From assembly GCA_947259735.1 (NCBI GenBank), contig CAMYNN010000001.1, forward strand, positions 114,515-178,514: 64,000 nucleotides of DNA, given 5' to 3'. Below the pieces are notes generated by a model, which did not search any database, was not told the origin of the DNA, and saw only the letters and a program-made list of their open reading frames with translations. This document shows positions 14,094-38,948 of this stretch, piece by piece; positions within the stretch are counted from its first letter, which is position 1, and every line of letters starts with the position of its first letter. The stretch is from Thermodesulfovibrionia bacterium (GTDB lineage: Bacteria; Nitrospirota; Thermodesulfovibrionia; UBA6902). The position numbers and the translations under genes are program-made.

Positions 14094-14109
14094 TGGCAAA
14101 GTAATTGCA
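14094..14109 (+). promoter_or_regulatory. sigma-54 (-24/-12) promoter upstream of the 1798-aa gene
   Basis: TGGCAAAGTAATTGCA has GG 14095-14096 and GC 14107-14108 (TGGCA-N6-TTGCA). It lies ~190 nt upstream of ATG 14301. Confidence 0.6.
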
Positions 14110-14300
14110 TTTTGATGTCAGGAATAACTTTGGAATATGAACGGGTCGGTAAGAAGGACATGCACGAGAGCATTTATAAATATAACGTGTCTTTTGCCAC
14201 AGGACATGCAGCTGGAAGGCGTACCACTCCAGCCCAGCAGGTGAGGGAATATTATTGCAAGACAGAATTGTGGCAAGAGAACGTATAAAGGGAGTAACGA

Positions 14301-17300
14301 ATGCTGACCATCATTGATCCGGAATTTATTTCAAAAGAAGAGGAGATTCTAGATGAACTGAAAAGGAATGGACTTAACCATCTCACCGGCAGTCCTGCAC
14401 TTGGCTGGAATTATGTAATAGACCATGTGTGGATCACCATGGAGATGCAGAAATTTCTTGCCGATAAGCGGGGCAGGGAGTTAGTGATCCTGGATGTGGG
14501 CTGCGGCAGATCAAAATTGCATAATTTCCTGGAAAAGAAATTCAACATCAGCATACTGGGCATTGACCGGCCTTATGGCTATTGTCATCAGAATAAAACG
14601 GACAATGTCGACTATTATGAAGACTTTCTGGAGATGAACAGTTTTGATGAAAATTCTGTTGATGCCATTTTCTGGCTTTCGGCTATTGAGCATAATGAAC
14701 CGGAAAAAATTCGTGAGCTCTATAAAAAAAGTATGGCATTACTGAAAGATGGCGGTCTGTTTCTGGCTACGTTCGCGTTGTCTGACAAGACAAGCTGGCT
14801 TGAAGCATCTCAGCAGACAAACTTAAGTATTCCTGACAGTATGGACATTTTTGATGAGAAAAGCGTTCAGCATACACTCGATGAAATAAGAGAAAAATAC
14901 AGGGCAAATGTTCTTTATTTACGTGATAAATATCAGAAAAGATATCAGAAATTCAATTGCAATGATCCTGAATTTGTTGTAGGCGGTATAAAGAAAATTA
15001 AAACTGCAACTTCTGCCGATGAAGTCCCGTGTCATGATGCACAGGAAAAGAGCCGGGACTATCTGTATTTATTTGTTCCATCAAATGATACGCACGTTCA
15101 TTTAATGAATCCAGTGGCACAAAAACTGGAGAGTGCAAAATTCATGATATTCGAGACAAGGCAGGAGAATGCAGAGTATTATCTGAATAAACTGGGACAT
15201 GAATATTTCAAGTATCAGAACGGAATCCTTCGCTCCATAAATCCTTCTGTTGTAATTTTTGCCAATGATTGGGGCCCGGAGGAAAGACAGTTAGTGAAGG
15301 AAGTGAAATCCCTTGGCATACCTACTGTATGCCTGCAGGAGGGCTGCCTGGACTTTATCGATACCAGTATTAACAGGATGATGCATGCAGATTACGCATT
15401 TATGCAGGGTCCGCTAATGAAGAAGTATATCAGACGGAGCGATAATGTCATTATTACCGGCAATCCCAAGTATGATTCAATGAACGATCTTCCTCTCCCG
15501 GATAAACCTGTGGTACTGATTAATGCGAACTTTACATACGGCATTTATGAGGATATTCGCGATCAATGGGTCGCAGATGCCGTGAGCGCATGCAGAGGAT
15601 TAAACCTTGACTTCTTTATCTCACAGCACCCGAGAGACAGGGGGGAATTCCCGGTTGATTATCATGCAGTGAGATCCGACGCCTTTAAGCTTAAGCCGCA
15701 GATTGAAAAATCATCACTCATTTTAACAAGATTCAGCACAATAATTTATGAAGCGGTAATACAGGGAAGGGGGGTTGTCTATTACAATCCTCACAAAGAG
15801 CCCTTCAGGATATTTACAGAGGATGATACGGGGGCAATAGAAATCGCCAGTTCCAGAACTGACCTCGCAGAGGCAATAAAAAAAGCACTGGAAGGCCTGG
15901 ATCATAAGAAAGAAGAGAGAGATTCTTTTATTCTCAAGCACTGCAATACAGTGGACCATGATGCATCTGAAAAGTGTGCTGAACAGTTGAGGTTAATAGC
16001 TGAAACCGACGGAAGGAGCACTGGAGATGCGAAGCAGCAGAACCTGAGAGATGACGAGGACCACGAAGTTATGGTGTCAGTAATTGTTCCAACACATAAC
16101 AGACCGGAAATGGTGGCGGATGCTGTCAAGAGTGTACTTGATCAGAAGTATAAAAATTTCGAGCTTCTTGTTGTAAATGATGCAGGGCCAGACATTGAAC
16201 CCATTATTACTTCAATGAACGGGAAAAGCAATATAACTTACGTCAGACATTCTGTAAACAGGGGGCTTGCGGCGGCCAGGAATACAGGGATTAAGCTGTC
16301 GAGAGGGAAATATATCGCTTATCTTGATGATGATGATATTTTCTATCCTGACCATCTTGAAACACTCGTACACTACCTTGAAAACAGCGATCATAAAATT
16401 GTTTATACCGATGCTCACAGAGCCCATCAGGTCAAGGAAAACGGACAGTATGTTACCCAAAAAATAGACCTTCCCTATTCACAGGATTTTGACTATGACC
16501 AGATTCTGGTATCGAACTTTGTGCCTGTCCTCTGCTTCATGCACGAAAAATCATGTCTCGATAAGACAGGATTATTTGATGAATCTCTCCCCGTTGTGGA
16601 AGACTGGGACCTTTGGATTCGTATGTCCAGGTTTTATGAAATGCCTCATATCAAAAAGGTCACTGCGGAGTTCAGGTCACGGGATGACGGTACGTCAATG
16701 ACGAGTAAAGGTATGGAAGCTTTCTATAGAACCGGTATTGCTGTACATAAAAAATATCGAGATTACGCAAAAGACAAACCCCATGTGCTGGATGCTCAGA
16801 AGCGTGCATATATGATGTATAACCTGGAAATGATATCTCATAATTCTCCCGACAAGGGAAATGATTTGAATAACAGAATCAAACTGGCAGCTACATTCAT
16901 ATCAGAATCTAAATTCTTACAGGCAATAGATGAGTATGCTGAGCTTGCAAAACAATACCCGGATATTGAAGTGTTCTACGCAGTATTATGTGACCTTTAT
17001 TCCCTGGAGGGCAGGAGTGATATCCCGGGAGAGTGGGTAACGCGTACCATCATGTTTGATCCCAGTTACTCTGACAGTTTTATTGATATGACCGCCAGGC
17101 TGATTGAAGATAAACAATATGCAGATGCGGAAAAGATTCTGACGGCTGTTGAAAAGGCCAGCACTGATAACTGTGAAGTGCTGGACACACTCAATTCACT
17201 CCGCTCAGAAATGATTGTACAGAGCGATACAAAGAATAATAAAAGAGCAACGATGAATGAAAAGTCAGCAGGACACGACATTAAGGGTATGGCATCAATC

Positions 17301-19697
17301 ATCATTCCTGTCATGAATAACCTTGAATATACGAAACAGTGTCTCGAAGCTCTCTCATTGAATACAGCATATGAACCCTACGAAGTGATTATTATTGATA
17401 ATGCCTCAACGGACGGAACAGGTGAGTTTCTGAAATGCCTTGAAGGAAATGTAAAGATTATCACGAACGGAGAGAACCTTGGCTTTGCCCGGTCCTGCAA
17501 TCAGGGGGCTATGGCTGCAGAGGGTGAATTTCTGGTCTTTCTGAATAATGACACCGTTCCTGAACCGGGCTGGCTGGATAGCATGGTGAGCGTTGCCGAC
17601 GGGAATCCGGACGTAGCAGTTGTGGGAAGTAAACTGCTCTACCCGGATGATAGGGTGCAGCACGCTGGTGTAGTATTCGGTTGTCGTGAATCAGGATTGA
17701 GCATATCCCATATATACAAGGGTATTGAAAGGGAGCATCCTGCAGTCAACTACCTCAGGGAGTTCAATGCAGTAACTGCGGCCTGCATGCTTGTAAAAAG
17801 AAATGTTTTCCTGGCACTGGACATGTTTGATGAGGGATTTTTGAACGGATATGAAGATGTTGACTTTTGTCTGAGAGTCAGAGAAAAAGGACTGAAGATT
17901 ATGTATAACCCCGAAAGCACTCTTCTCCATTATGAAGAAAGTACCGAGGGAAGGCTTGATCACGGTGAACGAAATACACTTCACTTTTTAAGTAAGTGGA
18001 AGGGGAAAATTGAACCTGATGAGGAAACGAAAGTGCATGAGGACGGATTCAGAATAGAGTACCTTCCTGATAATCGTGCCCTGATTAATTGTTCAGAGCA
18101 GCAGGATAAATGCATCAGTGAAGAGGGGAAGAAGTATGAGTACAAGAGAAGACCTGAAAATGAAGAAATATTGCCTGAAATGAAATCAGGAGAGATGAAT
18201 AAGAAGAAACTCGCTATCGTAAGAGGAGCAAATATCAATAAATGGGAAATGCAGAACTATGAACCTCTTCGTGACATGTATTCTATCACTGCCTATACAA
18301 CAGAACCGCATGTTTTCGATCTAAGCCACATTCAGTTTCCTGTGGTGAAACTCCCCTGTGAATCACAGGGTCTGCTTCTGGATATGAAAGGACTTGAAGA
18401 TCATCTTTCCGACAAGGATCTAATATATTCTGCTGATATTACATACAGGTTTTCGGAACAGGCCGTTCAGGCAAAACAGAAATACGGATGCAAGGTTGTA
18501 TGTCTTGAATGGGAAAATATTCCATTTAACTATGATCAGTATGAAGAGGTTCACCGTATAAAGAAAACGGTCCGACATGGAGCTGACCATTTCATTGCTG
18601 TTACTCAGCGTGCAAAAGAGGCACTCATGCTTGAGGGTGTTTCTGAAGCACGGATTGATGTAGTTCCAATGGGTGTGGATCTGAATGTCTTTAAGCCTGA
18701 TAAGAAGAATATTGAAAGAGACAGAGAAAAAATCGGAATTGGTAATGACGAAATAGTGGTGCTCTTTATCGGAAGGATGGTGTGGGAGAAGGGGATTTAT
18801 GACCTGATACACGCGGCGACAGGAGTTATTCGGGATGACTCTATAAAAGAACGTTTTGTACGATTTCTCATTATTGGGAAAGGCCCCGAATTAGACGGTG
18901 TTCATAAAAGGATAACAGATCTGGGGATTGGCAGCCATGTTACTTTACTGGAGGAATATCCTTATCATTATATGCACAGATTGCATAATCTTTCCGACAT
19001 ATTTGTCCTCCCAAGTATATCTACCAGAGATTGGCAGGAGCAGTTCGGAATGGTGCTCATAGAAAGCATGGCCTGCGGGAAACCTGTTATTTCAACTCGT
19101 TCAGGGTCCATCCCTGAAGTAGTGGGAGATGATGGGATATTAATTCAACCGAATGATCATCTGTCTCTGTATGGGGCCATAAAGAAACTGATTCTGGATC
19201 ATGCACTCAGAGCAGAACTCGGGGCCAGGGCATTGTCAAGAGCAAAGAAGATGTTTGATTCTCAAAGGACGGCAGAAAGAATCAGATTAATATTCGAAAA
19301 GGTTCTGAATAAGAAAACTGAGGAAGAGAGATTGAATGAAGATTTTATGAAGGGAATGCAGTTATGGAAAGAGGGGAGCAGAGTAGATGGTTTTGAGGTT
19401 CTCTGCAGGACCTTTGAAGAAGACCCTGATAGGAAGAATGTACTTGACTCAATTGTCCAGACCGGAAGGGAACTGAAACGACATGATGCTGTAGAGAACT
19501 ATATAAGAGAATACCTGCTCTATCATCCGGCTAACCTTGATGCGCTTGCGTCACTGGCGCAGACACTTATAGATACGGGAAAGATTGATCGGGCGGAAGA
19601 TGAATTGGCGAAGATTTTTATTTTTGACCGAGAACACAGACGGGCAGTTTCTCTAGTGAAGGAGATAGAGGCAGCAAGAAAGCAAGTAAAAGTCTGA
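14301..19697 (+). CDS. Giant multidomain modification enzyme: SAM-methyltransferase + TagF/KpsC-like GT-B + GT2 + TPR + GT2 + GT4 + TPR (1798 aa)
   Basis: Motifs seen are: class-I MTase motif I (VILDVGCGRSK, ~14.48-14.78 kb); a GT-B-like region (VVLINANFTYG ... FISQHPRD ... LILTRFSTIIYEAV); GT2 no. 1 (VSVIVPTHNRPEMV...YLDDDD...EDWDLWIRM, ~16.07-16.72 kb); GT2 no. 2 (ASIIIPVMNNLEYT...IIIDNASTDGT...FLNNDT...GYEDVDFCLR, ~17.29-17.95 kb); GT4 (FIGRMVWEKG...EQFGMVLIESMACGKPVISTRSGSIPEVV, ~18.2-19.2 kb); TPR-like helices in the middle and at the C-terminus. An AGGGAG RBS is present. Confidence 0.85.
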   Translation: MLTIIDPEFISKEEEILDELKRNGLNHLTGSPALGWNYVIDHVWITMEMQKFLADKRGRELVILDVGCGRSKLHNFLEKKFNISILGIDRPYGYCHQNKTDNVDYYEDFLEMNSFDENSVDAIFWLSAIEHNEPEKIRELYKKSMALLKDGGLFLATFALSDKTSWLEASQQTNLSIPDSMDIFDEKSVQHTLDEIREKYRANVLYLRDKYQKRYQKFNCNDPEFVVGGIKKIKTATSADEVPCHDAQEKSRDYLYLFVPSNDTHVHLMNPVAQKLESAKFMIFETRQENAEYYLNKLGHEYFKYQNGILRSINPSVVIFANDWGPEERQLVKEVKSLGIPTVCLQEGCLDFIDTSINRMMHADYAFMQGPLMKKYIRRSDNVIITGNPKYDSMNDLPLPDKPVVLINANFTYGIYEDIRDQWVADAVSACRGLNLDFFISQHPRDRGEFPVDYHAVRSDAFKLKPQIEKSSLILTRFSTIIYEAVIQGRGVVYYNPHKEPFRIFTEDDTGAIEIASSRTDLAEAIKKALEGLDHKKEERDSFILKHCNTVDHDASEKCAEQLRLIAETDGRSTGDAKQQNLRDDEDHEVMVSVIVPTHNRPEMVADAVKSVLDQKYKNFELLVVNDAGPDIEPIITSMNGKSNITYVRHSVNRGLAAARNTGIKLSRGKYIAYLDDDDIFYPDHLETLVHYLENSDHKIVYTDAHRAHQVKENGQYVTQKIDLPYSQDFDYDQILVSNFVPVLCFMHEKSCLDKTGLFDESLPVVEDWDLWIRMSRFYEMPHIKKVTAEFRSRDDGTSMTSKGMEAFYRTGIAVHKKYRDYAKDKPHVLDAQKRAYMMYNLEMISHNSPDKGNDLNNRIKLAATFISESKFLQAIDEYAELAKQYPDIEVFYAVLCDLYSLEGRSDIPGEWVTRTIMFDPSYSDSFIDMTARLIEDKQYADAEKILTAVEKASTDNCEVLDTLNSLRSEMIVQSDTKNNKRATMNEKSAGHDIKGMASIIIPVMNNLEYTKQCLEALSLNTAYEPYEVIIIDNASTDGTGEFLKCLEGNVKIITNGENLGFARSCNQGAMAAEGEFLVFLNNDTVPEPGWLDSMVSVADGNPDVAVVGSKLLYPDDRVQHAGVVFGCRESGLSISHIYKGIEREHPAVNYLREFNAVTAACMLVKRNVFLALDMFDEGFLNGYEDVDFCLRVREKGLKIMYNPESTLLHYEESTEGRLDHGERNTLHFLSKWKGKIEPDEETKVHEDGFRIEYLPDNRALINCSEQQDKCISEEGKKYEYKRRPENEEILPEMKSGEMNKKKLAIVRGANINKWEMQNYEPLRDMYSITAYTTEPHVFDLSHIQFPVVKLPCESQGLLLDMKGLEDHLSDKDLIYSADITYRFSEQAVQAKQKYGCKVVCLEWENIPFNYDQYEEVHRIKKTVRHGADHFIAVTQRAKEALMLEGVSEARIDVVPMGVDLNVFKPDKKNIERDREKIGIGNDEIVVLFIGRMVWEKGIYDLIHAATGVIRDDSIKERFVRFLIIGKGPELDGVHKRITDLGIGSHVTLLEEYPYHYMHRLHNLSDIFVLPSISTRDWQEQFGMVLIESMACGKPVISTRSGSIPEVVGDDGILIQPNDHLSLYGAIKKLILDHALRAELGARALSRAKKMFDSQRTAERIRLIFEKVLNKKTEEERLNEDFMKGMQLWKEGSRVDGFEVLCRTFEEDPDRKNVLDSIVQTGRELKRHDAVENYIREYLLYHPANLDALASLAQTLIDTGKIDRAEDELAKIFIFDREHRRAVSLVKEIEAARKQVKV

Positions 19698-19894: not shown

Positions 19895-19910
19895 GGGCAC
19901 AAATATTGCT
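19895..19910 (+). promoter_or_regulatory. sigma-54 type promoter upstream of the second fliS
   Basis: GGGCACAAATATTGCT has GG 19896-19897 and GC 19908-19909 at canonical spacing. It lies ~60 nt upstream of ATG 19970. A 10-bp palindrome GCACATGTGC lies just upstream (19875-19884). Confidence 0.55.
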
Positions 19911-19969: not shown

Positions 19970-20338
19970 ATGGGAGGAACAGCACTGAAACCACAGGCGG
20001 AGCAGAGGGGAACCGATGGAGTGCAGATCGTTTCAATGCTCTATGACGGTGCAATCAACTTTATCGGTAAAGCAAAAGAAAAGCTGGACATAGGCGATTC
20101 TTCCGGCAGGTCTTTATATATCAAAAAGGCAACGGATATTGTAAAAGAACTGTCGGGCTCTCTCAATATGGACACCGGAGAAATTGCCGTAAATCTCAGG
20201 AGCCTTTACGATTTTGTTCTTGACAGTCTTGCAAAGGCAGACCTGCAGAACAATCGTGACGCACTCAGTGATGCAGAGAAGGTCATTGATATCATCCGCA
20301 GTTCCTGGCAGGAGATGCAGGAAGCAGGAAAAGTATAG
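19970..20338 (+). CDS. fliS: FliS-family flagellin chaperone paralog (copy 2, 122 aa)
   Basis: The ORF track starts at 19880 but that extension covers the promoter. ATG 19970 follows GAAGGAGGGA. It aligns along its length with copy 1 (VQIVSMLYDGAINFIGKAKEKLDIGD ... NLRSLYDFVLDSLAKADLQNN ... IIRSSWQEM), at roughly 40-45% identity by eye. Confidence 0.8.
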   Translation: MGGTALKPQAEQRGTDGVQIVSMLYDGAINFIGKAKEKLDIGDSSGRSLYIKKATDIVKELSGSLNMDTGEIAVNLRSLYDFVLDSLAKADLQNNRDALSDAEKVIDIIRSSWQEMQEAGKV

Positions 20339-20664: not shown

Positions 20665-20680
20665 TGGCACAGATATTGCT
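20665..20680 (+). promoter_or_regulatory. sigma-54 promoter upstream of the MerR-GT2-CMP-sugar operon
   Basis: TGGCACAGATATTGCT is an exact TGGCAC-N5-TTGC consensus. It lies ~70 nt upstream of ATG 20752. Confidence 0.65.
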
Positions 20681-20751
20681 TTGAAACCTAAAGTAAACTT
20701 TAAATTTTTTTAAACTCTTTGCAAAGGCAAGAGAAAGTACTAACCATTTCG

Positions 20752-21021
20752 ATGAAATTAGTATTTACGATAAACGATGTAAGTAAAGTAACCGGTGTTC
20801 CGGTCCATACGATAAGGTTCTGGGAAAAAGACTTTAAGAATTATCTCAAACCCGGCAAGACACCGGGAGGTCAGAGACGATACTGCCTCAGGGATATCAG
20901 AATCATAGAGAAAATAAAATATCTGCGCTATCAGGAGAAGTATACGATAGCAGGTGCATTGAAGGAAATAAGGAAGCATGAAGGGTATGAACTTGGTGCA
21001 GGAGCACAGGCACATGTCTAA
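20752..21021 (+). CDS. Small MerR-family HTH protein (89 aa, DNA-binding domain only)
   Basis: The ORF track starts at TTG 20719; ATG 20752 gives MKLVFTINDVSKVTGVPVHTIRFWEKDF...GGQRRYCLRDIRIIEKIKYLR, a typical MerR N-terminal HTH with no effector domain. Its stop overlaps the next gene's ATG (ATGTCTAA). Confidence 0.7.
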   Translation: MKLVFTINDVSKVTGVPVHTIRFWEKDFKNYLKPGKTPGGQRRYCLRDIRIIEKIKYLRYQEKYTIAGALKEIRKHEGYELGAGAQAHV

Positions 21022-22003
21022 ACCGTCTGTATCAGTCATTATTCGCTGCTGCAATGAGCAGGAGCACATAGGACGTCTGCTTACAGGTATTTATGAACAG
21101 ACCCTGAACGACATTGAAGTGATAATCGTTGATTCCGGTTCCACAGACAGGACTCTGTCAATAGCTTCCTGCTTTCCCGTTATCATCAGGACAATAAGTG
21201 CGCAGGAATTTTCATTCGGTCACGCACTGAATGTGGGATGTAAAGCGGCCAATGGGAACATCATAGTATTTGCCAGCGCCCATGTATATCCGACTCACCG
21301 CCGCTGGCTGGAGACACTGATTGCGCCGTTCAATGATCCTAAAGTCGCTCTCACATATGGAAAACAGCGTGGAAATGAAATGAATAAATTTTCTGAGCAT
21401 CAAATATTTTCAAAGTGGTTCCCCGAGCATTCATTGTCCGTTCAGCGGACACCCTTTTGCAATAACGCCAATGCGGCGATTCCAAGAGATTTGTGGAAGA
21501 TTGTTCCCTATGATGAGGGATTAACGGGACTTGAAGATATCGACTGGGCAAAGCGTCTGATTGGCAAGGGATACTATTTAGCATATGCGGCAGAAGCAGA
21601 AGTAATTCATGTCCATAACGAAAGATATATGGGAACGCTTAATCGCTACTACCGTGAGTCAATTGTATTCTGTCAGCTTTTCCCCGAACAGAAATTTCGG
21701 ATGAAGGATTTTTTGTGGCTCTGGTTTATCAATACATTGAACGACTATGCACATGCATTCCGTAAGGGGAAACTGTTCGGCAATCTATTGAGCATTCCCC
21801 TGTTCAGATTAATGCAGTTCTGGGGAACATACAGAGGGTATGCGCAGAGGGACCCTGTCAGCTCCGCGCTCAGGCAAAGGTTCTATTATCCCAACGGACT
21901 GTCCAGGCCAGCGGACAATGGCAATAAACCGGATACGTCTGATAATGACTATATTGATTACATGAAAATAGAGAAAAATGAAAAAATCGAACAACCTCAT
22001 TGA
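21014..22003 (+). CDS. Glycosyltransferase family 2
   Basis: MSKPSVSVIIRCCNEQEHIGRLL...EVIIVDSGSTDRT...GLEDIDWAKR has GT-A/GT2 hallmarks. The start is taken at ATG 21014 (track 20978) to avoid a long overlap with the MerR gene. Confidence 0.8.
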   Translation: MSKPSVSVIIRCCNEQEHIGRLLTGIYEQTLNDIEVIIVDSGSTDRTLSIASCFPVIIRTISAQEFSFGHALNVGCKAANGNIIVFASAHVYPTHRRWLETLIAPFNDPKVALTYGKQRGNEMNKFSEHQIFSKWFPEHSLSVQRTPFCNNANAAIPRDLWKIVPYDEGLTGLEDIDWAKRLIGKGYYLAYAAEAEVIHVHNERYMGTLNRYYRESIVFCQLFPEQKFRMKDFLWLWFINTLNDYAHAFRKGKLFGNLLSIPLFRLMQFWGTYRGYAQRDPVSSALRQRFYYPNGLSRPADNGNKPDTSDNDYIDYMKIEKNEKIEQPH

Positions 22004-24297: not shown

Positions 24298-24309
24298 GAG
24301 GAAGATAAT

Positions 24310-30996: not shown

Positions 30997-33900
30997 ATGG
31001 AAGAAATCAGAGTATCAGCAATAGTCTCAGCGTACAACAGCGAACGGTTCATGAGGGGCAGACTTCAGGACCTGGTCGGTCAGTCGCTGTTCCGAAAAAA
31101 GCAGCTTGAGATAATCGTTATAGACTCGAACTCTCCTCAAAAAGAAAAAGTAATTGTAGATGAATTCATGAAGCACCATAAAAATATCCGTTATGTACGG
31201 ACCGACGTCAGGGAGACTGTTTATGGTGCATGGAATCGCGGGATCACATTATCCAGAGGGAACTATGTTATTAATGCAAATTCGGATGACAGGTTTACAG
31301 CGGATGCTCTGGAAATAATGGCAGATGAATTTCAAAAGGACACCGATATTCATGCGGTATACGGAAACTGGCTTGTCACAAAAGTTGAGAACGATTCGAT
31401 CGAATCAGGAACTGAAAAGTTCCTGTTTGAATACCCGGAATTTTTCCCGCCTCTATTTTTTTACTATCAGATAACCTCTCATGCCGCAATGTTTATGAAA
31501 GATACATTTGACCTGATCGGCTGTTATGACGAAGAACTCAAAGTATTCGGTGACAGGGAGTTTATGTTCAGATTTATAACATCCGGACTCAACGCAAGAA
31601 AAATTGATTTGACGGTCGGATTGTATCTGGAAGGGAGGAACGGCGTAGAACGCTCTGAGGCTTCAGCTGAGAGGGAGTTTGCATCAATTCGTGATAAATA
31701 TCTGATACCGGAATATTTTGTCAGATTTTTCGGTTACGAGCATGTTCCACAGAAAAGAGACCTGGCTCAGCTCTATGCATATGTAGGTTCACGTGGATTC
31801 AGATTTCTCGCATGGAATGATACACCGGCAAGTGACATGCCCTTTGCGGCACAATTATTCATGTTAGCATTAAAACTTGATCCCCTTAATGTCGTTGCCT
31901 TGAATAATCTTGGCATTCTTCGGTGCCTGAATGAACAGCATGAGCTGGGAGTTGATCTGTTAAGCAAGGCATTCATGTGTGACCCCGCAGACACTATTCG
32001 CTCGAATGTTGATCTTGCAAAGCACCGTTCTGTTGAAGTTGAAGATTATCTCTGGATGCAGAAAGAACTGAAGAGCAGCAGGAGTTCATATCTATCCTCG
32101 GTGAATGTCCCGGAAACTGAGGTATCTGGACAAGCAAATACATGCACTCCGTCGGTCAGCATTATTATTCCGACCCGTAACCGAACTCATCTGCTTGCTG
32201 AAGCCATCGAAAGTGTGACGGGACAGACATACCGGGATTATGAAATAATCGTTGTGAATGATGGCGGTGATGATATCGCCGGTGTTACGAATACGTACGA
32301 AAAGGACTGCAGCATTACCGTACTGAATCTCGGAGAGAGGCAGGGCCCTGCAAAAGCGAGGAACAGCGGACTGGAAATAGCCAGGGGAAAGTATATAGCC
32401 TATCTTGATGATGATGACATTTATTATCCGGAACACCTGGAAAAACTGGTAGGGTATCTTGAACGGAATGACTGTAAGGTAGCATACACCGATTCTTATC
32501 AGGCATTCCAGAAATGGGAAAAAGATGAATATGTAACTACTGATAGAAGACTCGTTTACAGTGAGGACTTTGACAAACAAAGAATTCTTGTCATGAACTT
32601 TATCCCTACTCTGACTATTGCTCACAGGAAGGATTGCATTGAGGAGGTTGGTTGCTTTGATGAAGGTCTCGAGACACATGAGGATTGGGACCTCTGGATA
32701 AGGATGTCTCAGCAATACAATTTTCACCATGTAAAAGGTGTGACGGCAGAGTTCAGAACCCGTTCGAACGGATCGAGCAGCACGTCCTCAAAACGGTCTG
32801 ACTTTTTAGAAACCATGAAGATTATTCATGCCAGATATGCACATCTTGCTGAAGACGATCAGGTCCCCAGACAGCAAGAGCATATTGAAAATGAGCTGCA
32901 TAAAGAGTTATCAGTAATGGAGAACGCTGATTATACGAACACAGATCTGTCCATAGTAACGGCAAAAAATGGCACCAAATCTGTGAGAGTGAAATGCCGG
33001 AACGGGTCTCTTAAAACTCTTCACAGTCTTTACGATCCGGCGGCGGAGGCGCGAGTAATTGTCGATAAGTTTCATTTCGATGAGGGCGGCATTATCATCG
33101 TTTTAGGGATTGGACTTGGATATCATGTGGCTGAATTGAGTAAAAGATTTCCTGATGCGCAAATTGTGGTGATAGAAGCCATTCATGAAATCAGTAATCT
33201 GGCTTCCAAACACGGACCCTCCATTGATGACAGGGTAAAGATCTACACAGGACTTTCAACCGGCGATGCAGTGAGAAAGGTCACGGAACATCAAATGGAA
33301 GGTGGATTGAAGTCTCTGTCTGTGTTTCCGTTGGCAGCGGCAGTCTCTGCGTATTCAGTTTATTACAGGCCGATACTGGAGGCGCTGAATAAATCACTCT
33401 CAATAAAACTCTGGGAAAGGCTCAGGTACACGAAATTCAAAAAAGAAAGACTGAAGATCCTGCTGCTTGATACGGGATATTTTCTTGTCAGAGAAATTGA
33501 AAAAGGCCTCCAGTCCCTTGATCAGGATGTGTATCGTATGCCTGTAGGGACCGGTGAGAGGGGTGACGTTATCGTTTCAAGATTTATGGAAGCAGTGCTG
33601 AATTTCAGGCCCGATTTTCTGCTTACCATAAACCATCTTGGCTTCGATGAAGGGGGCGCCCTTACGGAACTTGTTGAGTCTCTTGAGATGCCTGTTGCTT
33701 CCTGGTATGTAGACAGTCCCACACTGATAGTCAATGCCTTTCAGAAGAACGTGTCTCCCTGGATGTCACTCTTCCTCTGGGATAAGTCCTATGTAAAAGA
33801 CATGAAAGACCTGGGTTTTGAATCAGTAGATCATTTACCGCTTGGGACAGATGAAAAGATCTTCAGACCCCTTACGGCAAGAAAGCACAGACATAAAATT

Positions 33901-34614
33901 CAGAAGTACCAGTGCGATACAGGGTTTGTAGGGAATTCCATGGTCGATGCGGTGAATAAATACACAGGAAGAGTTGATGAACGGCTGAGACCGCTCGTGC
34001 ATAAAATTGCCGATAAGTTCCTGCATTCTCATAATCGGTTTCCTTCAATCGGCGACTATCTCGGGGGGAGCGATCATGTTCTCTTTGATGATCTCGATGA
34101 AAAAGAAAAAATGGATTTCGAAGCGGCTGTTCTCTGGCAGGCAACCTTGAAATACCGTAATTCTCTCATTACTGAGCTTGCACGGTTTGACGCTGTAATT
34201 CATGGCGATCCTTCATGGGACCAGCTGTTAAAAGACAATGCTATCCGGTTGAAGCAGCCCCTTCATTACTATAAAGAGCTTCCTTTTTTTTACAATGCCT
34301 GCAAGGTCAATTTTAATGCTACCAGCCGGCAGATGAGGGAAGCGGTCAATCAAAGAGTATTCGATGTGCCTGCCTGCGGTGCCTTTCTGCTTACAGACTA
34401 TCAGGATTCGATGAATAATTTATTTGAAGTCAATAAGGAAATAATTGTGTACAGACACAGAGACGAAGTTCCGGAAATTATAAAGTTTTACCTGAAATAC
34501 CCCTGGGAGAGGGAGCGTGTTGCTTTGCTTGGGAGGGAAAGAGTTCTGAAAGATCATACCTATAAACACCGGCTTCGCGTATTAATTCAGAGTATGGAAC
34601 AAAAATATAAATGA
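30997..34614 (+). CDS. Multidomain GT2 + TPR + GT2 + Maf-N-like module + CgeB-like glycosyltransferase (1205 aa)
   Basis: GT2 no. 1 (VSAIVSAYNSERF...IIVIDSNSPQ...NANSDD). TPR (ALKLDPLNVVALNNLG). GT2 no. 2 (VSIIIPTRNRTHLL...YLDDDD...EDWDLWIRM). Then LHSLYDPAAEA...VLGIGLGYHVAELSK. The C-terminal domain FDVPACGAFLLTDY...LGRERVLKDHTYKHRL is typical of CgeB/DUF3880-type GT1-like proteins. Confidence 0.8.
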   Translation: MEEIRVSAIVSAYNSERFMRGRLQDLVGQSLFRKKQLEIIVIDSNSPQKEKVIVDEFMKHHKNIRYVRTDVRETVYGAWNRGITLSRGNYVINANSDDRFTADALEIMADEFQKDTDIHAVYGNWLVTKVENDSIESGTEKFLFEYPEFFPPLFFYYQITSHAAMFMKDTFDLIGCYDEELKVFGDREFMFRFITSGLNARKIDLTVGLYLEGRNGVERSEASAEREFASIRDKYLIPEYFVRFFGYEHVPQKRDLAQLYAYVGSRGFRFLAWNDTPASDMPFAAQLFMLALKLDPLNVVALNNLGILRCLNEQHELGVDLLSKAFMCDPADTIRSNVDLAKHRSVEVEDYLWMQKELKSSRSSYLSSVNVPETEVSGQANTCTPSVSIIIPTRNRTHLLAEAIESVTGQTYRDYEIIVVNDGGDDIAGVTNTYEKDCSITVLNLGERQGPAKARNSGLEIARGKYIAYLDDDDIYYPEHLEKLVGYLERNDCKVAYTDSYQAFQKWEKDEYVTTDRRLVYSEDFDKQRILVMNFIPTLTIAHRKDCIEEVGCFDEGLETHEDWDLWIRMSQQYNFHHVKGVTAEFRTRSNGSSSTSSKRSDFLETMKIIHARYAHLAEDDQVPRQQEHIENELHKELSVMENADYTNTDLSIVTAKNGTKSVRVKCRNGSLKTLHSLYDPAAEARVIVDKFHFDEGGIIIVLGIGLGYHVAELSKRFPDAQIVVIEAIHEISNLASKHGPSIDDRVKIYTGLSTGDAVRKVTEHQMEGGLKSLSVFPLAAAVSAYSVYYRPILEALNKSLSIKLWERLRYTKFKKERLKILLLDTGYFLVREIEKGLQSLDQDVYRMPVGTGERGDVIVSRFMEAVLNFRPDFLLTINHLGFDEGGALTELVESLEMPVASWYVDSPTLIVNAFQKNVSPWMSLFLWDKSYVKDMKDLGFESVDHLPLGTDEKIFRPLTARKHRHKIQKYQCDTGFVGNSMVDAVNKYTGRVDERLRPLVHKIADKFLHSHNRFPSIGDYLGGSDHVLFDDLDEKEKMDFEAAVLWQATLKYRNSLITELARFDAVIHGDPSWDQLLKDNAIRLKQPLHYYKELPFFYNACKVNFNATSRQMREAVNQRVFDVPACGAFLLTDYQDSMNNLFEVNKEIIVYRHRDEVPEIIKFYLKYPWERERVALLGRERVLKDHTYKHRLRVLIQSMEQKYK

Positions 34615-34894: not shown

Positions 34895-34910
34895 TGGCAA
34901 GATAATTGCT
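34895..34910 (+). promoter_or_regulatory. sigma-54 promoter upstream of the 591-aa Maf-N/CgeB gene
   Basis: TGGCAAGATAATTGCT has GG 34896-34897 and GC 34908-34909. It lies ~55 nt upstream of ATG 34966. Confidence 0.6.
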
Positions 34911-34965
34911 TTATACCATGCGTGGATAATTTTATGACGGGATTGCTGTTTCCTTGAAAGATACA

Positions 34966-36729
34966 ATGACATTTAAAAAAAACATGGCAGTACTCAAAAA
35001 GTACGATAGACACCTGGCTCAAGCTGTCTTAAGCACACAATGCGGCTCGGATATTGAGCTTGTCAAATCAAAAAAAGGTATTCCCTCGCTCCGGGTCAGC
35101 AATATAAGTCTTCACAGTCTTTATGACCCTGTGAAAGAGGCAATAACATGGGTCGAACACCATGCAAAAGAGCTTGGAAATGCGGGAGAGATACATGTCC
35201 TCGGCTTCGGTCTGGGGTATCACCTGCTGGAACTCAGCAAAGCTTCGGACAGGAGCATAATTGTTTATGAACCGAGGCTGGATATCATAAAAAAAGCAAT
35301 GGAATGTGTGGATCTGACATCTCTCATTTACCGGGTCAAAATTGTAACAAAAAATGAGGTGGCTTCTGTAAAGGACTCATTCGCCATTTTGCCGTACAAA
35401 CCCTCAGTAAACCTGAACATGGCATATTTCGAAAATATTCAGGATAAATTGAGATCTCTTCAGTCAATAAGCAGGGGCCTGAGGATCGTTGTGGTAGGAC
35501 CGATATATGGAGGTTCTCTTCAGATTGCCGGTTATTGCTCACGGGCACTTATCAAGATGGGCCATACCGTGGAATTTATAGACAACAGCCGATTTTCCGA
35601 TGATCTTTTTCTGGCAAGGGACATATCGGGAGACAGTGAGAAGTACAACAAACTGTCAGAGATTCTTACCACCTTTATATCGGAGATAATCATGGCGCGG
35701 TGTGAGGAGTTCAGGCCGGACATCGTATTGTCCCTTGCGCAGTCTCCCTTGTCTCCGGAATGTCTCAAACGTCTGCAGCAGAAAAAAACCAGATCAGCAT
35801 ACTGGTTTGTCGAAGATTTCAGACTCATGGATTACTGGAAAAAGATTGCACCTCACTATGATTTCTTTTTTACAATCCAGAGGGAACCTTTCTTTGCAGA
35901 ACTCGAAAAGGAAGGCATCAGGAATTACTCATACCTTCCCATGGCTGCCAGTCCGGAAATTCACCGGCCCCTGGAGCTGGCTGAAAGTGAACGGCAGAGT
36001 TACGGGAGCGACCTCTCTTTCGTGGGTGCCGGATACTATAACAGGAGACATTTCCTGAAAGGATTGCTCGATTTCGATTTCAGGATATGGGGCTCAGACT
36101 GGGACATGAATTCTGCGCTGGCGCCATGCATTCAAAGATCAGGGCAGCGAATGGAGACGGACGAAATAGTGAAAATATTCAATGCAACGAAGATTAATAT
36201 CAATCTTCATTCATCAACCTATCACAGGGGAATACATCCATTCGGGGATTTTGTGAATCCGCGGACATTCGAGATAGCAAGCTGCGGCGGATTTCAGCTC
36301 GCAGACCGGCGATCAGAGATGGATGATCTCTTTGAAGAAGGCGAAGAGATTATTCTCTATGACGATTTGAACGACCTAAGAAACAAGGCGGCTTATTATC
36401 TTGCCCGCTCCGGGGAAAGAGAAAGGATAACCCGAAATGCCAGAAAGAGAATTCTGCAGGATCATACCTATGAACAAAGGATGAAGGAGATGTTAAAGAT
36501 TGTCGCAGAAAGAACTCTTGAGCCAACCCTCTGGTCTAATGAAGGTGAGAACGTGCAGTCCCTTCTTGATGAGGCGGAAGATGATGCAGAACTTTCGAAA
36601 TATTTGTCCCGGTTTTCAGAAAGGAAGAGGGTGTCCCTCTCCGGGATTGTTGAGAATATCACGACAGGAGAAGGCGACTTAAACAGAATGGAAACCCTCT
36701 TTCTCATGATGAATGAGTTTGTTCGGTAA
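34966..36729 (+). CDS. Maf-N-like module fused to a CgeB-like glycosyltransferase (paralog of the C-terminal half of the 1205-aa protein)
   Basis: The track starts at TTG 34954; ATG 34966 gives MTFKKNMAVLKKYDRHLAQAV. It shares LHSLYDPVKEA, VLGFGLGYHLLELSK and the C-terminal FEIASCGGFQLADR...ARKRILQDHTYEQRM with 30997-34614. Confidence 0.75.
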   Translation: MTFKKNMAVLKKYDRHLAQAVLSTQCGSDIELVKSKKGIPSLRVSNISLHSLYDPVKEAITWVEHHAKELGNAGEIHVLGFGLGYHLLELSKASDRSIIVYEPRLDIIKKAMECVDLTSLIYRVKIVTKNEVASVKDSFAILPYKPSVNLNMAYFENIQDKLRSLQSISRGLRIVVVGPIYGGSLQIAGYCSRALIKMGHTVEFIDNSRFSDDLFLARDISGDSEKYNKLSEILTTFISEIIMARCEEFRPDIVLSLAQSPLSPECLKRLQQKKTRSAYWFVEDFRLMDYWKKIAPHYDFFFTIQREPFFAELEKEGIRNYSYLPMAASPEIHRPLELAESERQSYGSDLSFVGAGYYNRRHFLKGLLDFDFRIWGSDWDMNSALAPCIQRSGQRMETDEIVKIFNATKININLHSSTYHRGIHPFGDFVNPRTFEIASCGGFQLADRRSEMDDLFEEGEEIILYDDLNDLRNKAAYYLARSGERERITRNARKRILQDHTYEQRMKEMLKIVAERTLEPTLWSNEGENVQSLLDEAEDDAELSKYLSRFSERKRVSLSGIVENITTGEGDLNRMETLFLMMNEFVR

Positions 36730-36735: not shown

Positions 36736-38478
36736 ATGCAAGAAATACTGATTATAAACCTGACGCGTATGGGCGACCTCCTGCAGACGACCCCTTTAAT
36801 GGCCGGGCTGAAGGAGCACTATCCTGGATCCAGAATTACGCTGCTGGTGAACACGGCATTTTTCGAAATATGTAACGGAATCCCCTATATAGATGAACTT
36901 ATTGACTTTGATATGAATGACTATCGAAACAGGCTCACAGAAAAAAAACATTCTCTTGTTGAGAACTATAAATATCTGGAAGATTTCATAAGCCTGCTCG
37001 GAGGCAGGGAATATGACCTTGCAATCAATATTACTCATTCGCCGATCAGCGCACTGTTAACGTCTTTCCTGAATGCCGCAGAAGTAAGGGGATTCACTAT
37101 TGACTCGGAAGGCCACAGGGTCATAAAGCATCCGTGGATGAGATATTTCTTTAATGTAATCCCGAACAGAATCTATAATCCTTTTCATCTGGTGGATATG
37201 TATCTGAAAATAGGGGGGGTAAAATCTGAAATAAAAGAGCTGACATACAGTGTATCGGAAAGGGACGATGCAAGAGCTTCAGCACTGTTAACGAATGCGG
37301 GGATTTCAAAGGGCGATGTGCTTATCGGGTTTCATCTTGGCGCAAGCAACAGTGAAAAGACGTGGCCCGTTTCATCCTATGCCCGGCTCGCAGAGATGAT
37401 CGTCGAAACGCTGGGAGCAAAAATAGTATTGTTTGGCACTGAGGGAGAGAGAACCCTTTCTGAGCAATTTGAAGAGATTGCAAGCGTTACCCCATTGAAC
37501 CTGGTCGGGCGAACGAGTCTGGGAGAACTCGCAGCATTGCTGGGGAGATGCGGCCTCTTTATCAGCAACGATACTGGGCCGCTGCATATTGCTACATCGG
37601 TCGGTACGCGAGTTCTTGATATTTCAACTGCAAATGTCCATTTCATGGAGACCGGTCCTTACGGAGAAGGTCATTATGTGATACAGGCAGACCTCGCCTG
37701 TTCACCCTGCGGATTTGATGTTCGCTGTAATGATATGGTGTGCAAATCCCATATTCAACCGTCTGCTGTTCTTGAAGTTGCCCGGATTGCTTTGAATCAG
37801 GACAGTGAACCTTCTGGGTCAGACGCTGCCCGTTGGGAGAATGTGCAGGTATACCGGTCACGAATTAAAGAAGATGGATATCTTGATTATGCTCCGCTCG
37901 TTAGACGTCCGTTGGACAACAAGACATTCTATCGCATTCTCTATAGACATGTCTGGAATATGGAAACTGATGGGCAGGAGCGGATGGGCGAAGAAATATA
38001 TGAAAATATTATGGATGAAATGAATGCTTATGATAGCTTCTGTGACTTTCATGAAACAGCCCTCTCAATCGAAGCTGATGTTGACAGTCTCAAAAAGCTG
38101 GTAAATTTGTCAGGTCAGGGCATGGAACAGACGGGACGCATTTTCAGGGAAAGTGAAAAAAAAGACATAAACATTGAAGCGTTAAAGGTGCTTCTGGGAA
38201 AAGTCGAATCCATAGATGCTGCAATCGAGCTCGCAGGACACACGAATCCATGTCTCAGGCCGTTCGTCGTGATTTTCAAATACTCAAAGGAGGCATTGGA
38301 GGGAAATGATTTAAGTGAAGTATCTGAAGCTTCCCATGCAATGTATCGAGAATTAAATCTCCGGGCTGACATGATGCATCAATTAACAGACAGGATCATA
38401 GCTCTGATGAAATCTACATCAGAGGGAGGGGCGGGTGAATGTGCAGGGGGGCAAGCAGGGATCCTGAATGTGTGTTAA
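36736..38478 (+). CDS. GT9 (heptosyltransferase-family) glycosyltransferase with a ~200-aa helical C-terminal extension
   Basis: N-terminus ILIINLTRMGDLLQTTPLMAGLKEHYPGSRITLLV and the later GTEGER...LVGRTSLGELAALLGRCGLFISNDTGPLHIA are classical ADP-heptose:LPS heptosyltransferase-family motifs. Residues ~380-580 have no recognised family. Confidence 0.75.
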   Translation: MQEILIINLTRMGDLLQTTPLMAGLKEHYPGSRITLLVNTAFFEICNGIPYIDELIDFDMNDYRNRLTEKKHSLVENYKYLEDFISLLGGREYDLAINITHSPISALLTSFLNAAEVRGFTIDSEGHRVIKHPWMRYFFNVIPNRIYNPFHLVDMYLKIGGVKSEIKELTYSVSERDDARASALLTNAGISKGDVLIGFHLGASNSEKTWPVSSYARLAEMIVETLGAKIVLFGTEGERTLSEQFEEIASVTPLNLVGRTSLGELAALLGRCGLFISNDTGPLHIATSVGTRVLDISTANVHFMETGPYGEGHYVIQADLACSPCGFDVRCNDMVCKSHIQPSAVLEVARIALNQDSEPSGSDAARWENVQVYRSRIKEDGYLDYAPLVRRPLDNKTFYRILYRHVWNMETDGQERMGEEIYENIMDEMNAYDSFCDFHETALSIEADVDSLKKLVNLSGQGMEQTGRIFRESEKKDINIEALKVLLGKVESIDAAIELAGHTNPCLRPFVVIFKYSKEALEGNDLSEVSEASHAMYRELNLRADMMHQLTDRIIALMKSTSEGGAGECAGGQAGILNVC

Positions 38479-38513
38479 ACATTGAGAGTAATATTCAACA
38501 AGAGGAGGAGGAC

Positions 38514-38948
38514 ATGAATGAAGTAAAGAAAGTAATTGAAAGGCCGGAACTTATCAACGCTATACGGGAAAGTATCAGCGATGCACGATATTCAGCAACA
38601 AAACTTGCAGAAACATTTACCGGCAATATCCAGCACCTGAGGCTTGAAGAAAGCGAAAAGGTGTTTACGAATCTGACGCAAAATATTCAGGACCTCGCGT
38701 GTTTTGTAGAATTTGTGGATCAGCTCAGAGAAGGAGTTGATTACTATAATGGATTTGGCCTGCCGCCGGACCCTATTTCGGCCGATAATTCGGGTTTGGA
38801 CCTGTTTCAGGAGATGCATACTGCCATGGCGTCAAAGGACTGGGTCATGTTGTCTGACCTCATAGAGTATGAACTCTCACCTTTACTGCAAAAAGAGGAT
38901 GAGTGGCTTGGGGCCCTTGGTGAGAAAGTACATGAGTACAGAGATTAA
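38514..38948 (+). CDS. Hypothetical helical protein (144 aa)
   Basis: ATG 38514 follows AGAGGAGGAGGAC (the track starts at 38439, overlapping the GT9 gene). No family recognised. It is the last gene of the island before the stator operon. Confidence 0.5.
   Translation: MNEVKKVIERPELINAIRESISDARYSATKLAETFTGNIQHLRLEESEKVFTNLTQNIQDLACFVEFVDQLREGVDYYNGFGLPPDPISADNSGLDLFQEMHTAMASKDWVMLSDLIEYELSPLLQKEDEWLGALGEKVHEYRD

Follow-up and report, generated by a model that had tools for sequence, protein, structure and literature searches.

A candidate flagellin glycosylation island with sigma-54-type promoters, a conserved core and a variable accessory operon in Thermodesulfovibrionia

Introduction

Most work on the glycosylation of flagellin concerns pathogens and a small number of model bacteria, and systems based on Maf enzymes and nonulosonic acids dominate; a large flagellin glycosylation locus is also known from Campylobacter. 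Here we describe a gene island in a 64-kb window (the whole stretch of DNA that was analysed; positions 114,515 to 178,514 of contig CAMYNN010000001.1, assembly GCA_947259735.1) from a Thermodesulfovibrionia bacterium of the Nitrospirota. This island, at positions 14301-38948 of the window, is embedded among genes of the flagellar filament and is probably a flagellin glycosylation island, composed of a conserved core and a swappable accessory operon, whose enzymes would act in the cytoplasm on unfolded flagellin before its export. From sequence, predicted structure and gene context, on which all functional statements below are based, we infer that the flagellin encoded alongside is the acceptor, and on the same grounds we propose donor sugars, a sequence of steps and a sulfated glycan.

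Several described systems provide points of comparison. In Shewanella, the C-terminal tetratricopeptide repeats (TPR) of Maf-1 bind flagellin, and GlfM is a FliS-like adaptor that bridges Maf-2 and flagellin (bioRxiv 10.1101/2023.12.03.569772). The TPR of Caulobacter FlmG likewise binds flagellin (PMC7591256), and Maf enzymes are able to transfer 3-deoxy-D-manno-oct-2-ulosonic acid (Kdo) to flagellin (bioRxiv 10.1101/2020.06.03.131540). In H. pylori, CsrA and RpoN control the gene of the flagellin transferase PseE (jhp0106; PMC5368276). Flagellin glycosylation islands can be as large as 30.4 kb, with up to 23 genes, in Geobacillus (PMC5109656), and TibC provides a case of direct protein glycosylation by a GT9-related enzyme (PMC4358343).

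Since large variable flagellin islands are known from Geobacillus and Campylobacter, the present island is not new in kind, and its size alone is unexceptional. It shares with the islands of Geobacillus, Clostridium, Aeromonas and Pseudomonas the insertion of variable blocks into a conserved flagellar locus, the combination of glycosyltransferases (GTs) with sugar-nucleotide genes and methyl or formyl tailoring, and an overlapping size range, and it differs from them in its megaproteins of 927-1798 aa, its 12-13 transferase domains, its two sulfotransferase domains and its sigma-54-type promoters. TPR-tethered tailoring enzymes and a pair formed by a Maf_N/CgeB-like enzyme and a long GT9 enzyme are further differences; the pair seems to represent a flagellum-linked system of several environmental phyla that has gone unstudied. 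An earlier note on this DNA, made from the sequence alone, had expected a glycan far more elaborate than in the described systems, which is overstated for size given the 30.4 kb of Geobacillus, although in its sulfotransferases and its count of transferase domains the island is still out of the ordinary. In the literature searched, we found no report of a sulfotransferase in a flagellin island or of sulfate esters on a bacterial flagellin glycan, the reported sulfated flagellin glycans being archaeal cases only. The same searches returned nothing relevant linking flagellin with CgeB or flagellin glycosylation with heptosyltransferase, and nothing relevant on flagellin glycosylation in Desulfovibrio, Leptospirillum, Nitrospirae or Geobacter.

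Results

Gene content and organization of the island

The open reading frame (ORF) map of positions 14301-38948 comprises 15 ORFs, all on the + strand, and bears out the layout with short or overlapping junctions described in the earlier note: junctions measure between -104 and +40 nt (-17 should g11 begin at the annotated position 28935), interrupted by three larger gaps of 182, 380 and 339 nt, and a further 409 nt of non-coding DNA separate fliS1 from the island. The locus belongs to a filament gene cluster, with flgI, flgN, flgK, flgL, csrA, fliW, a 281-aa flagellin gene, flaG, fliD and fliS upstream and genes for a response regulator, a PilZ protein, MotA, MotB, a histidine kinase and a second, inverted stator pair downstream. 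Of the two borders proposed earlier, fliS and a stator operon, the former (13499-13891) stands, whereas the ORF at 39040 is the response regulator and motA starts only at 40334, with the PilZ gene between them. The G+C content of the island (0.42-0.46) equals that of its flanks, unlike the low G+C of the Geobacillus islands, which indicates a resident variable locus and no recent import; recent horizontal acquisition of the whole island was ruled out on this ground. The island genes, labelled g1, fliS2, merR and g4 to g15, are listed below with the promoter motifs and filament genes to which the text refers.

About 10575-10602, + strand: sigma-28-type fliC promoter, TAAAGTTT-N11-GCCGATAA (motif)
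10820..11665, + strand: fliC, 281-aa minimal flagellin, presumed acceptor (Pfam, NCBIfam)
13499..13891, + strand: fliS1, canonical flagellin chaperone, left island border (Pfam FliS, 125.9 bits)
14094..14109, + strand: sigma-54-type motif TGGCAAAGTAATTGCA, upstream of g1, exact TGGCAM-N5-TTGCW
14301..19697, + strand: g1, 1798-aa megaenzyme (Pfam, NCBIfam and PDB matches)
19895..19910, + strand: weaker sigma-54-like motif GGGCACAAATATTGCT, 60 nt before the likely fliS2 start
19970..20338, + strand: fliS2, second FliS chaperone (ORF listed from 19880, likely start 19970)
20665..20680, + strand: sigma-54-type motif TGGCACAGATATTGCT, heading the merR-to-g12 operon
20719..21021, + strand: merR, small MerR-family helix-turn-helix regulator (Pfam MerR_1, 60.3 bits)
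20978..22003, + strand: g4, GT2, first gene of the six-gene CMP cassette (Pfam)
21978..22646, + strand: g5, PF04199 'cyclase'/arylformamidase-like metal hydrolase (Pfam, 82.3 bits)
22647..23351, + strand: g6, CTP_transf_3 cytidylyltransferase, CMP-acid-sugar activation (Pfam, 115.7 bits)
23341..24297, + strand: g7, D-2-hydroxyacid dehydrogenase, 2-Hacid_dh (Pfam, 193 bits)
24310..25047, + strand: g8, short-chain dehydrogenase/reductase, SDR (Pfam, 173 bits)
25051..27834, + strand: g9, 927 aa, double sulfotransferase with TPR array (Pfam)
27827..28951, + strand: g10, GT2 (Pfam, 115.6 bits)
28935..30956, + strand: g11, 673 aa, predicted GT-A fold, DUF115/MptE-like domain and TPR (Pfam, AlphaFold, Foldseek)
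30997..34614, + strand: g12, 1205 aa, two GT2, Maf_flag10_N-like and CgeB-like regions (Pfam, NCBIfam)
34895..34910, + strand: sigma-54-type motif TGGCAAGATAATTGCT, upstream of g13
34954..36729, + strand: g13, 591 aa, Maf_flag10_N, DUF3880 and Glyco_trans_1_2, a CgeB-like GT-B enzyme (Pfam)
36736..38478, + strand: g14, 580-aa GT9 with C-terminal extension (Pfam GT9, 103.3 bits)
38439..38948, + strand: g15, small protein with no family match, likely start near 38514

Pfam confirmed the earlier count of six GT2, one GT4, two CgeB-like and one GT9 domain, and Pfam and NCBIfam together confirmed an S-adenosylmethionine (SAM)-methyltransferase, two intact sulfotransferase domains of the 3'-phosphoadenosine 5'-phosphosulfate (PAPS) type, a module for activating sugars with cytidine monophosphate (CMP), a second FliS and a MerR regulator. 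Together with the DUF115 domain of g11 and a predicted hidden GT-A domain in the same protein, which adds one transferase, the island encodes 12 well-supported transferase domains. One further region is weak: the TagF/KpsC-like GT-B region of the earlier note, at about residues 471-561 of g1, falls below threshold, matching the C-terminal part of the PF04464 (Glyphos_transf) profile only, at 15.7 bits against a cut-off of 22.1.

The remainder of g1 consists of the SAM-methyltransferase (residues 63-155), two GT2 domains (593-809 and 999-1216), the GT4 domain (1412-1672) and a TPR segment (1726-1786; TPR_19, 33.9 bits), and its equivalent in a Nitrospiraceae metagenome-assembled genome (MAG; locus L018) is a methyltransferase-GT4 fusion. 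In g12, GT2 domains at residues 6-210 and 385-595 precede a Maf_flag10_N-like region (633-731; 23.0 bits, just below the cut-off of 23.5) and a DUF3880 plus Glyco_trans_1_2 region (902-1197); the C-terminal half of this protein is a paralogue of g13 and adjoins g13 in relatives too. TPR arrays had been reported on four catalytic types, which holds for g1, g9 and g11, the repeats of g12 at about residues 287-316 being only marginal (TPR_17, 18.8-21.7 bits against 24.4).

The g9 protein contains sulfotransferase domains at about residues 20-285 and 299-570, followed by a TPR array at about 600-900. Its Pfam scores (Sulfotransfer_3, 165.9 bits; Sulfotransfer_1, 92.8 bits) exceed the family cut-off, and PAPS-binding motifs are present in both domains (KAGTTT with RNPVDRAFS, and PRSGTT with RDPRDVVSS), as expected of a PAPS-dependent sulfotransferase. 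No APS (adenosine 5'-phosphosulfate) kinase was found among the window proteins scanned. The g9 gene is present in only one other species of the genome collection, genome scans with the single sequence or with a two-sequence alignment returned only the already known contig of locus L001, and an identical copy of g9 is present on a contig of MAG GCA_945786855.1. In the equivalent island of L018, a 686-aa protein with an APS-kinase domain (23815-25875) is encoded beside B12-radical-SAM enzymes, so that sulfur chemistry is not unique to the window; judging from its sequence, this kinase would supply PAPS within a flagellar glycosylation locus.

The TPR arrays of the window are fused to GTs and to a sulfotransferase, and those of relatives to carbamoyltransferase-methyltransferase and B12-radical-SAM enzymes, which marks the fusion of TPR with tailoring enzymes as a habit of the whole clade. 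The FlmG and GlfM/Maf-2 systems, in which the acceptor is recognised by TPR domains or by a FliS-like adaptor, share with the island a TPR-bearing transferase and a small FliS-like helical protein encoded inside the locus, but differ in that TPR arrays are found here on the sulfotransferase as well, and in relatives on carbamoyltransferase and radical-SAM enzymes. The presence of TPR arrays on tailoring enzymes suggests that the glycan is tailored while protein-bound. Locus L016 (13991-21162) encodes a 1206-aa carbamoyltransferase-methyltransferase-TPR fusion and a 1184-aa double B12-radical-SAM-TPR fusion.

The earlier claim that the island encodes no exporter, priming transferase or transmembrane stretch was borne out by the Pfam inventory and by a hydropathy scan. 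Pfam revealed no flippase, polymerase, ABC transporter or polyprenyl-phosphate priming transferase family in the island, which by both analyses lacks the hallmarks of a Wzx/Wzy- or ABC-dependent polysaccharide cluster. The hydropathy scan, which is cruder than a dedicated membrane-topology predictor, found no 19-residue Kyte-Doolittle window above 1.6 in the island proteins except one of 1.75 in the DUF115 core of g11, a stretch that forms a buried helix and strand in the AlphaFold model (pLDDT, the per-residue confidence score, of 93); the MotA control reached 1.97.

Conservation of the locus in related genomes

To compare the island with related genomes, window proteins were mapped by tblastn onto fetched loci (labelled L001 and so on), the nearest of which come from Nitrospirota/Thermodesulfovibrionia MAGs. 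At least 16 Nitrospirota MAG loci present the order flgK-flgL-fliW-fliC-flaG-fliD-fliS1 followed by a homologue of the GT4-TPR part of g1, and in 11 of these (including L007-L009, L012-L014 and L016-L019) fliS2 comes next. L019 carries a complete 16.5-kb version that ends with the C-terminal half of g12 (g12C), g13, GT9, g15, response regulator, PilZ and motA, and L009 continues with merR, GT2, cyclase and CMP-transferase genes like the window; merR homologues were found in L008 and L009. The synteny comparison that the earlier note had proposed documents flagellar linkage across many genomes of several phyla.

The genes that follow fliS2 differ between relatives. L018 encodes a GHMP kinase, a DegT aminotransferase, a nucleotidyltransferase, dehydratases, a two-subunit thiamine enzyme and B12-radical-SAM enzymes; L012 has a similar amino-sugar gene set; L007 presents methyltransferases, an asparagine-synthase-like amidotransferase and a methyltransferase-GT4 fusion; and L016 differs again. 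These different gene sets at a fixed position define the locus as a hotspot for glycan diversification. In a Thermodesulfobacteriota MAG (L001, 245-10796), a block comprising the C-terminal part of g1, sulfotransferase-TPR, GT2, DUF115-TPR and the N-terminal part of g12 is 48-57% identical to the window, whereas the core genes g13 and GT9 are only 39-40% identical. This difference in identity suggests that the accessory block moved laterally between phyla. On contig JAGVNU010000085.1 of a Thermodesulfovibrionia MAG (L011 and L040), about 66 kb separate the end of fliS1 from the start of the response regulator gene, and the island there may be far larger than that of the window.

Promoter motifs and predicted expression order

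Within the 64 kb, the strict sigma-54 pattern TGGCAM-N5-TTGCW has three matches (14094, 20665 and 34895), where chance predicts 0.18, and none of 100 shuffles gave three. All three are intergenic, on the + strand and in the larger gaps of the island, 54-207 nt upstream of the starts of g1, merR and g13, and the weaker fourth site at 19895 (GGGCAC-N5-TTGCT) lies ahead of fliS2. A relaxed pattern with two mismatches was not enriched (20 observed, 17 expected), so that only the strict pattern is informative, and a scan of the island for sigma-70 promoters and terminators gave counts at chance level (39 against 35.7 and 15 against 15.6, respectively) and is therefore uninformative on operon boundaries.

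In 12 related loci the g13 homologue is preceded by a sigma-54 motif; in eight (L009, L015, L016, L018, L019, L020, L024 and L034) a similar one is found directly 3' of fliS1. The motif before merR is kept in two (L008 and L009), and L013 carries a perfect TGGCAT-N5-TTGCA before its fliS2. The description of the island as sigma-54-driven is supported by three strict promoter motifs that are kept at orthologous junctions. Given sigma-54 motifs ahead of the enzyme genes and a sigma-28 motif ahead of fliC, production of the enzymes would fall into an earlier flagellar class than that of their presumed substrate. Predicted sigma-54 control of flagellin-modifying enzymes, together with the csrA-fliW genes just upstream of fliC, recalls H. 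pylori PseE (PMC5368276, PMC7988653), but PseE is a single pseudaminic acid transferase, compared to four candidate sigma-54 units and many enzymes here. A further sigma-54-like site, TGGCATTGATTTTGCG, at 1493-1508, directly precedes an ORF (1520-2230) of the flagellar rod/ring block upstream.

The DUF115 enzyme and the CMP cassette

The g11 protein divides into a GT-A fold (residues ~8-300), a DUF115/MptE-like Maf fold (~323-555) and a C-terminal TPR region (~560-673). Its DUF115 match (PF01973) scores 60.2 bits against a cut-off of 34.6, the motif IIGNGPSL is present and the TPR array is strong. When full-length g11 was compared with solved structures, both by sequence and by fold, almost only TPR proteins were recovered, and the truncated sequence as query found a single chain, as a weak match (archaeal HPPK, 8sd5, E 0.19). 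An AlphaFold model of g11 built on 54 homologues reached a pLDDT of 93.7, and a second model lacking the TPR region reached 92.6. In Foldseek searches, this TPR-less model matched the Magnetospirillum Maf 5MU5 (E 7.7e-6), together with M. jannaschii HPPK (8sd5) and many GT-A enzymes, among them LARGE1, SpsA, XXYLT1 and glycogenin. We read this as a predicted GT-A domain, undetected by any hidden Markov model, followed by a Maf-fold domain. The assignment of the GNGPSL enzyme to the Maf-DUF115 group in the earlier note is accordingly right for the fold but not for a canonical Maf, since g11 lacks Maf_flag10_N.

Like the Maf systems of Campylobacter, Helicobacter, Aeromonas, Shewanella and Magnetospirillum, the island is located in a filament gene cluster, encodes soluble enzymes predicted to be cytoplasmic, and combines a DUF115/MptE-like fold (5MU5) and a C-terminal TPR as in Maf-1 with an adjoining CMP-sugar activating enzyme. 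It departs from them in that the predicted N-terminal GT-A domain of g11 replaces Maf_flag10_N (PF20157), which is here carried as a fusion by the CgeB-like GT-B enzymes, at 33.2 bits in g13 and 23.0 bits in g12, and in that no NeuB/PseI/LegI-type synthase was found among the window proteins scanned.

The cassette associated with g11 consists of GT2, cyclase, CMP-transferase, 2-hydroxyacid dehydrogenase, SDR and DUF115 genes. The cyclase g5 scores 157 bits on TIGR03035, under the cut-off of 223, and the best NCBIfam match of the cytidylyltransferase g6 is PseF at 67.9 bits (cut-off 205.7), with KdsB models at about 33 bits (cut-offs 193-255). A block at 48302-52009, 9 kb downstream of the island, contains kdsA, kdsD (with SIS and CBS domains) and a kdsC-like phosphatase gene, followed by pgsA and plsY; no kdsB was found in this block, and g6 is the only CTP_transf_3 gene found in the window. 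With these kds genes nearby and Maf enzymes able to transfer Kdo, a modified Kdo-like ulosonate might be the donor, although this is only a guess.

In Pseudodesulfovibrio tunisiensis (L116, CP094380.1), a g11 homologue lies beside genes for a CMP-transferase-epimerase fusion, a HAD phosphatase and a 2-hydroxyacid dehydrogenase, and an HpcH/HpaI aldolase and a sigma-54 activator are also encoded near it. By sequence, this set may represent a non-canonical, aldolase-based route to a CMP-activated 3-deoxy-ulosonic acid.

The conserved pair g13-g14 and its partner g15

The g13 protein carries Maf_flag10_N at 33.2 bits, above the cut-off, and has more than 2605 homologues (a lower bound), which their sources name only 'glycosyltransferase' or 'spore maturation protein CgeB'. 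A genome scan with g13 returned 80 loci, 49 of them at least 15 kb long; filament or stator genes are no more than 10 kb away in 48 of all loci and in 41 of the longer ones. Together with a long GT9 gene, g13 is found near flagellar genes in Nitrospirota, Thermodesulfobacteriota and Acidulodesulfobacterium-type MAGs, and the arrangement GT9-g13-GT9 follows fliC-fliD-fliS directly in Leptospirillum-type Nitrospirota, Desulfobacca-type Thermodesulfobacteriota and the Acidulodesulfobacterium-type MAGs. In Thermodesulfovibrionia loci, the order g12C-g13-GT9-g15-response regulator-PilZ-motA-motB-histidine kinase is identical to that of the window.

The C-terminal extension of g14, about 200-230 aa long, is kept in the GT9 protein downstream of g13 in 51 of the 80 loci, and g15 is kept between GT9 and the response regulator in Thermodesulfovibrionia loci; neither g15 nor the extension had a family match in Pfam or NCBIfam, permissive thresholds included. 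The closest solved structure to g14 is the GT9 protein 3TOV. As a soluble and predicted cytoplasmic GT9-family enzyme, g14 resembles the autotransporter heptosyltransferases TibC and Aah, from which it differs by its proximity to the generic GT9 3TOV, its 230-aa C-terminal extension and its constant pairing with a Maf_N/CgeB-like enzyme.

Flagellin, FliS2 and flanking genes

The flagellin is 77-90% identical across 12 relatives and always about 281 aa long, a length at which the D2/D3 domains are lacking. Its variation is concentrated at residues ~140-190, where Ser143, Ser148, Ser183 and Ser184 are invariant and thus, by inference only, candidate acceptor sites. FliS2 scores 96.5 bits on Pfam FliS and 67.8 bits on TIGR00208, above the equivalog cut-off of 53.75, and its likely start at 19970 is preceded by a GGAGG ribosome-binding site. 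At 46% identity to FliS1 it is a true FliS paralogue, unlike GlfM, which is a distant 89-aa FliS-like protein. A role for FliS2 as the chaperone of an adjoining second flagellin was rejected, as no second fliC lies beside fliS2 in any locus examined.

A csrA gene (77 aa) directly precedes fliW just upstream of fliC (9720-10357); this is the FliW-CsrA-flagellin partner-switch arrangement that Bacillus and Campylobacter are known to have. On the other side of the island, positions 39040-44998 hold motA/motB on the + strand and motB/motA on the - strand, with genes for a response regulator, a PilZ protein and a PAS histidine kinase between them, a block that is kept in Thermodesulfovibrionia relatives and may act as a brake controlled by cyclic di-GMP or as a stator-swapping unit. 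Further downstream, the - strand of 54157-57206 encodes a 577-aa GT5-type starch/glycogen synthase-like protein and a response regulator fused to an HD domain of the HD-GYP type, both unrelated to the island, although the latter is another possible cyclic di-GMP element.

Alternative explanations

Several observations weigh against a dedicated flagellin glycosylation system. The sequence of g11 does not reach Maf among solved structures, and g11 shows no Maf_flag10_N match, its N-terminal 300 residues being predicted to fold as GT-A. No NeuB/PseI/LegI-type nonulosonate synthase was detected among the window proteins scanned, so that the CMP-nonulosonic acid donor proposed in the earlier note is unproven, and no sigma-54 activator (AAA+) was detected among these proteins either. 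The six-gene cassette occurs in the same order, at 38-54% identity, in a Bacteroidota MAG (L004), and no flagellar gene was detected within 10 kb of the P. tunisiensis g11 homologue, contexts that indicate a mobile cassette which is not intrinsically flagellar. No flagellar gene was seen within 10 kb in eight Desulfobacca-like loci that are 15 kb or longer, and in the complete relative CP070788.1 the fliS half and the g13 half of the locus are about 247 kb apart. Lastly, exporters and priming enzymes are likewise missing from clusters for the core of lipopolysaccharide (LPS), in which GT9, GT4 and CMP-Kdo are employed too; this makes the earlier argument from exporter absence weaker than it looks.

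The main alternative is a division of function, in which the core modifies flagellin and the merR-to-g12 operon, having landed in a permissive variable locus, decorates another acceptor, such as the LPS core, a polysaccharide or another protein. We regard this as unlikely. In its favour, the cassette in L004, a locus chosen for its similar DUF115 core, has a polysaccharide setting (polysialyltransferase-like, WbsX, GT2, GT4 and DegT genes), its DUF115 protein consists of the 277-aa core only, and the positional counterpart of g4 is 51% identical to g4. Among 117 relatives of g11, no source name calls any a motility factor, some are annotated as WaaZ_KDO_III (Kdo transferase), and those of Pseudodesulfovibrio and Thiocystis have no detectable flagellar gene in the stretches of up to 10 kb fetched on each side; the closer match of the L001 accessory block than of its core adds the hint of lateral transfer. 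However, the DUF115 core acquired a C-terminal TPR in this lineage, as in the flagellin-binding Maf-1, and the sulfotransferase also bears one; the operon is headed by a conserved sigma-54 motif of its own, its last gene, g12, encodes a core-type Maf_N/CgeB-like enzyme in its C-terminal half, and no membrane, flippase or ligase function is encoded.

It is improbable that the whole block is a cluster for the LPS core or another lipid-linked glycan that merely adjoins flagellar genes. Such a cluster would need neither exporter nor priming enzyme, since its product is built on Kdo2-lipid A and flipped by MsbA, and the soluble nature of all island enzymes, their GT9, GT4 and GT2 domains, a KdsB-family cytidylyltransferase with no other CTP_transf_3 in the window, and kdsA, kdsD and kdsC 9 kb downstream are compatible with it. 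The individual enzymes fit poorly, however: g14 scores 87.7-93 bits on heptosyltransferase I-III models, against cut-offs of 134.6-185.3, short of the WaaC/WaaF/WaaQ equivalog level, in addition to carrying its conserved extension; g6 reaches only about 33 bits on KdsB models; and no WaaA-type Kdo transferase was found. The block moreover contains FliS2, Maf_N domains and TPR arrays, is linked to fliC-fliD-fliS across phyla and varies strongly in content among close relatives, unlike LPS inner cores.

Modification of another protein instead (FliD, FlgL, FlaG, hook proteins, or unrelated cytoplasmic or secreted proteins) is very improbable: GT9-family enzymes such as TibC (PMC4358343), like the autotransporter heptosyltransferases, can glycosylate proteins directly, TPR is a generic protein-binding module and FliS2 has no partner flagellin gene alongside in any locus examined, but flagellin is the main substrate in all characterised flagellar-locus systems (PMC3958885), FliS is a flagellin-specific chaperone and the module directly follows fliC-fliD-fliS.

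Discussion

Taken together, these data favour a flagellin glycosylation island. The earlier proposal of a cytoplasmic glycosylation system for the adjacent flagellin is supported in its link to the filament, by synteny, sigma-54 motifs, the Maf-like fold and the Maf_N domains, with flagellin as the presumed acceptor. The island would consist of two layers. The core layer would comprise the methyltransferase/GT4-TPR gene after fliS, fliS2, g13, the C-terminal half of g12, g14 and g15; the accessory layer would be the strain-specific operon from merR to g12, contributing the mobile six-gene cassette, the double sulfotransferase and extra GT2 domains.

In the mechanism that we propose, three or four sigma-54 promoters would express the soluble enzymes alongside flagellar genes of the early or middle class, at a time when flagellin synthesis has yet to be released by sigma-28 and CsrA/FliW. 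Unfolded flagellin would be retained in the cytoplasm, where FliS2 may serve as its dedicated holder or as an adaptor comparable to GlfM, and TPR arrays and Maf_N domains would dock the enzymes on it. Ser/Thr residues of the short exposed segment (about residues 140-190) would then be primed, the DUF115 domain using a CMP-activated acidic sugar, perhaps a modified Kdo-like ulosonate, and the pair of CgeB-like and GT9 enzymes may also prime. GT2 and GT4 domains would extend the chains, TPR-tethered enzymes would methylate and sulfate the protein-bound glycan, and the flagellar type III system would export the product.

A bolder version of this proposal is possible but doubtful on present sequence data. 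In it, the Maf_N/CgeB-like and long GT9 pair would be a new, Maf-independent class of flagellin O-glycosyltransferase, seeding a long oligosaccharide that is extended, methylated and sulfated on the protein, with FliS2 as the holder and the glycan replacing D2/D3.

The finding matters first because a widespread and unstudied enzyme pair is tied to filament genes in environmental phyla, and because it makes sulfation of a bacterial flagellin glycan possible; if true, this would be the first sulfated bacterial flagellin glycan. The combination of a minimal, conserved flagellin with a hypervariable glycosylation locus means that the sugar coat, and not the protein, could be the variable surface towards phages and predators, and, if the proposal is true, the variable glycan would form a strain-specific outer layer in place of D2/D3 on a 281-aa flagellin.

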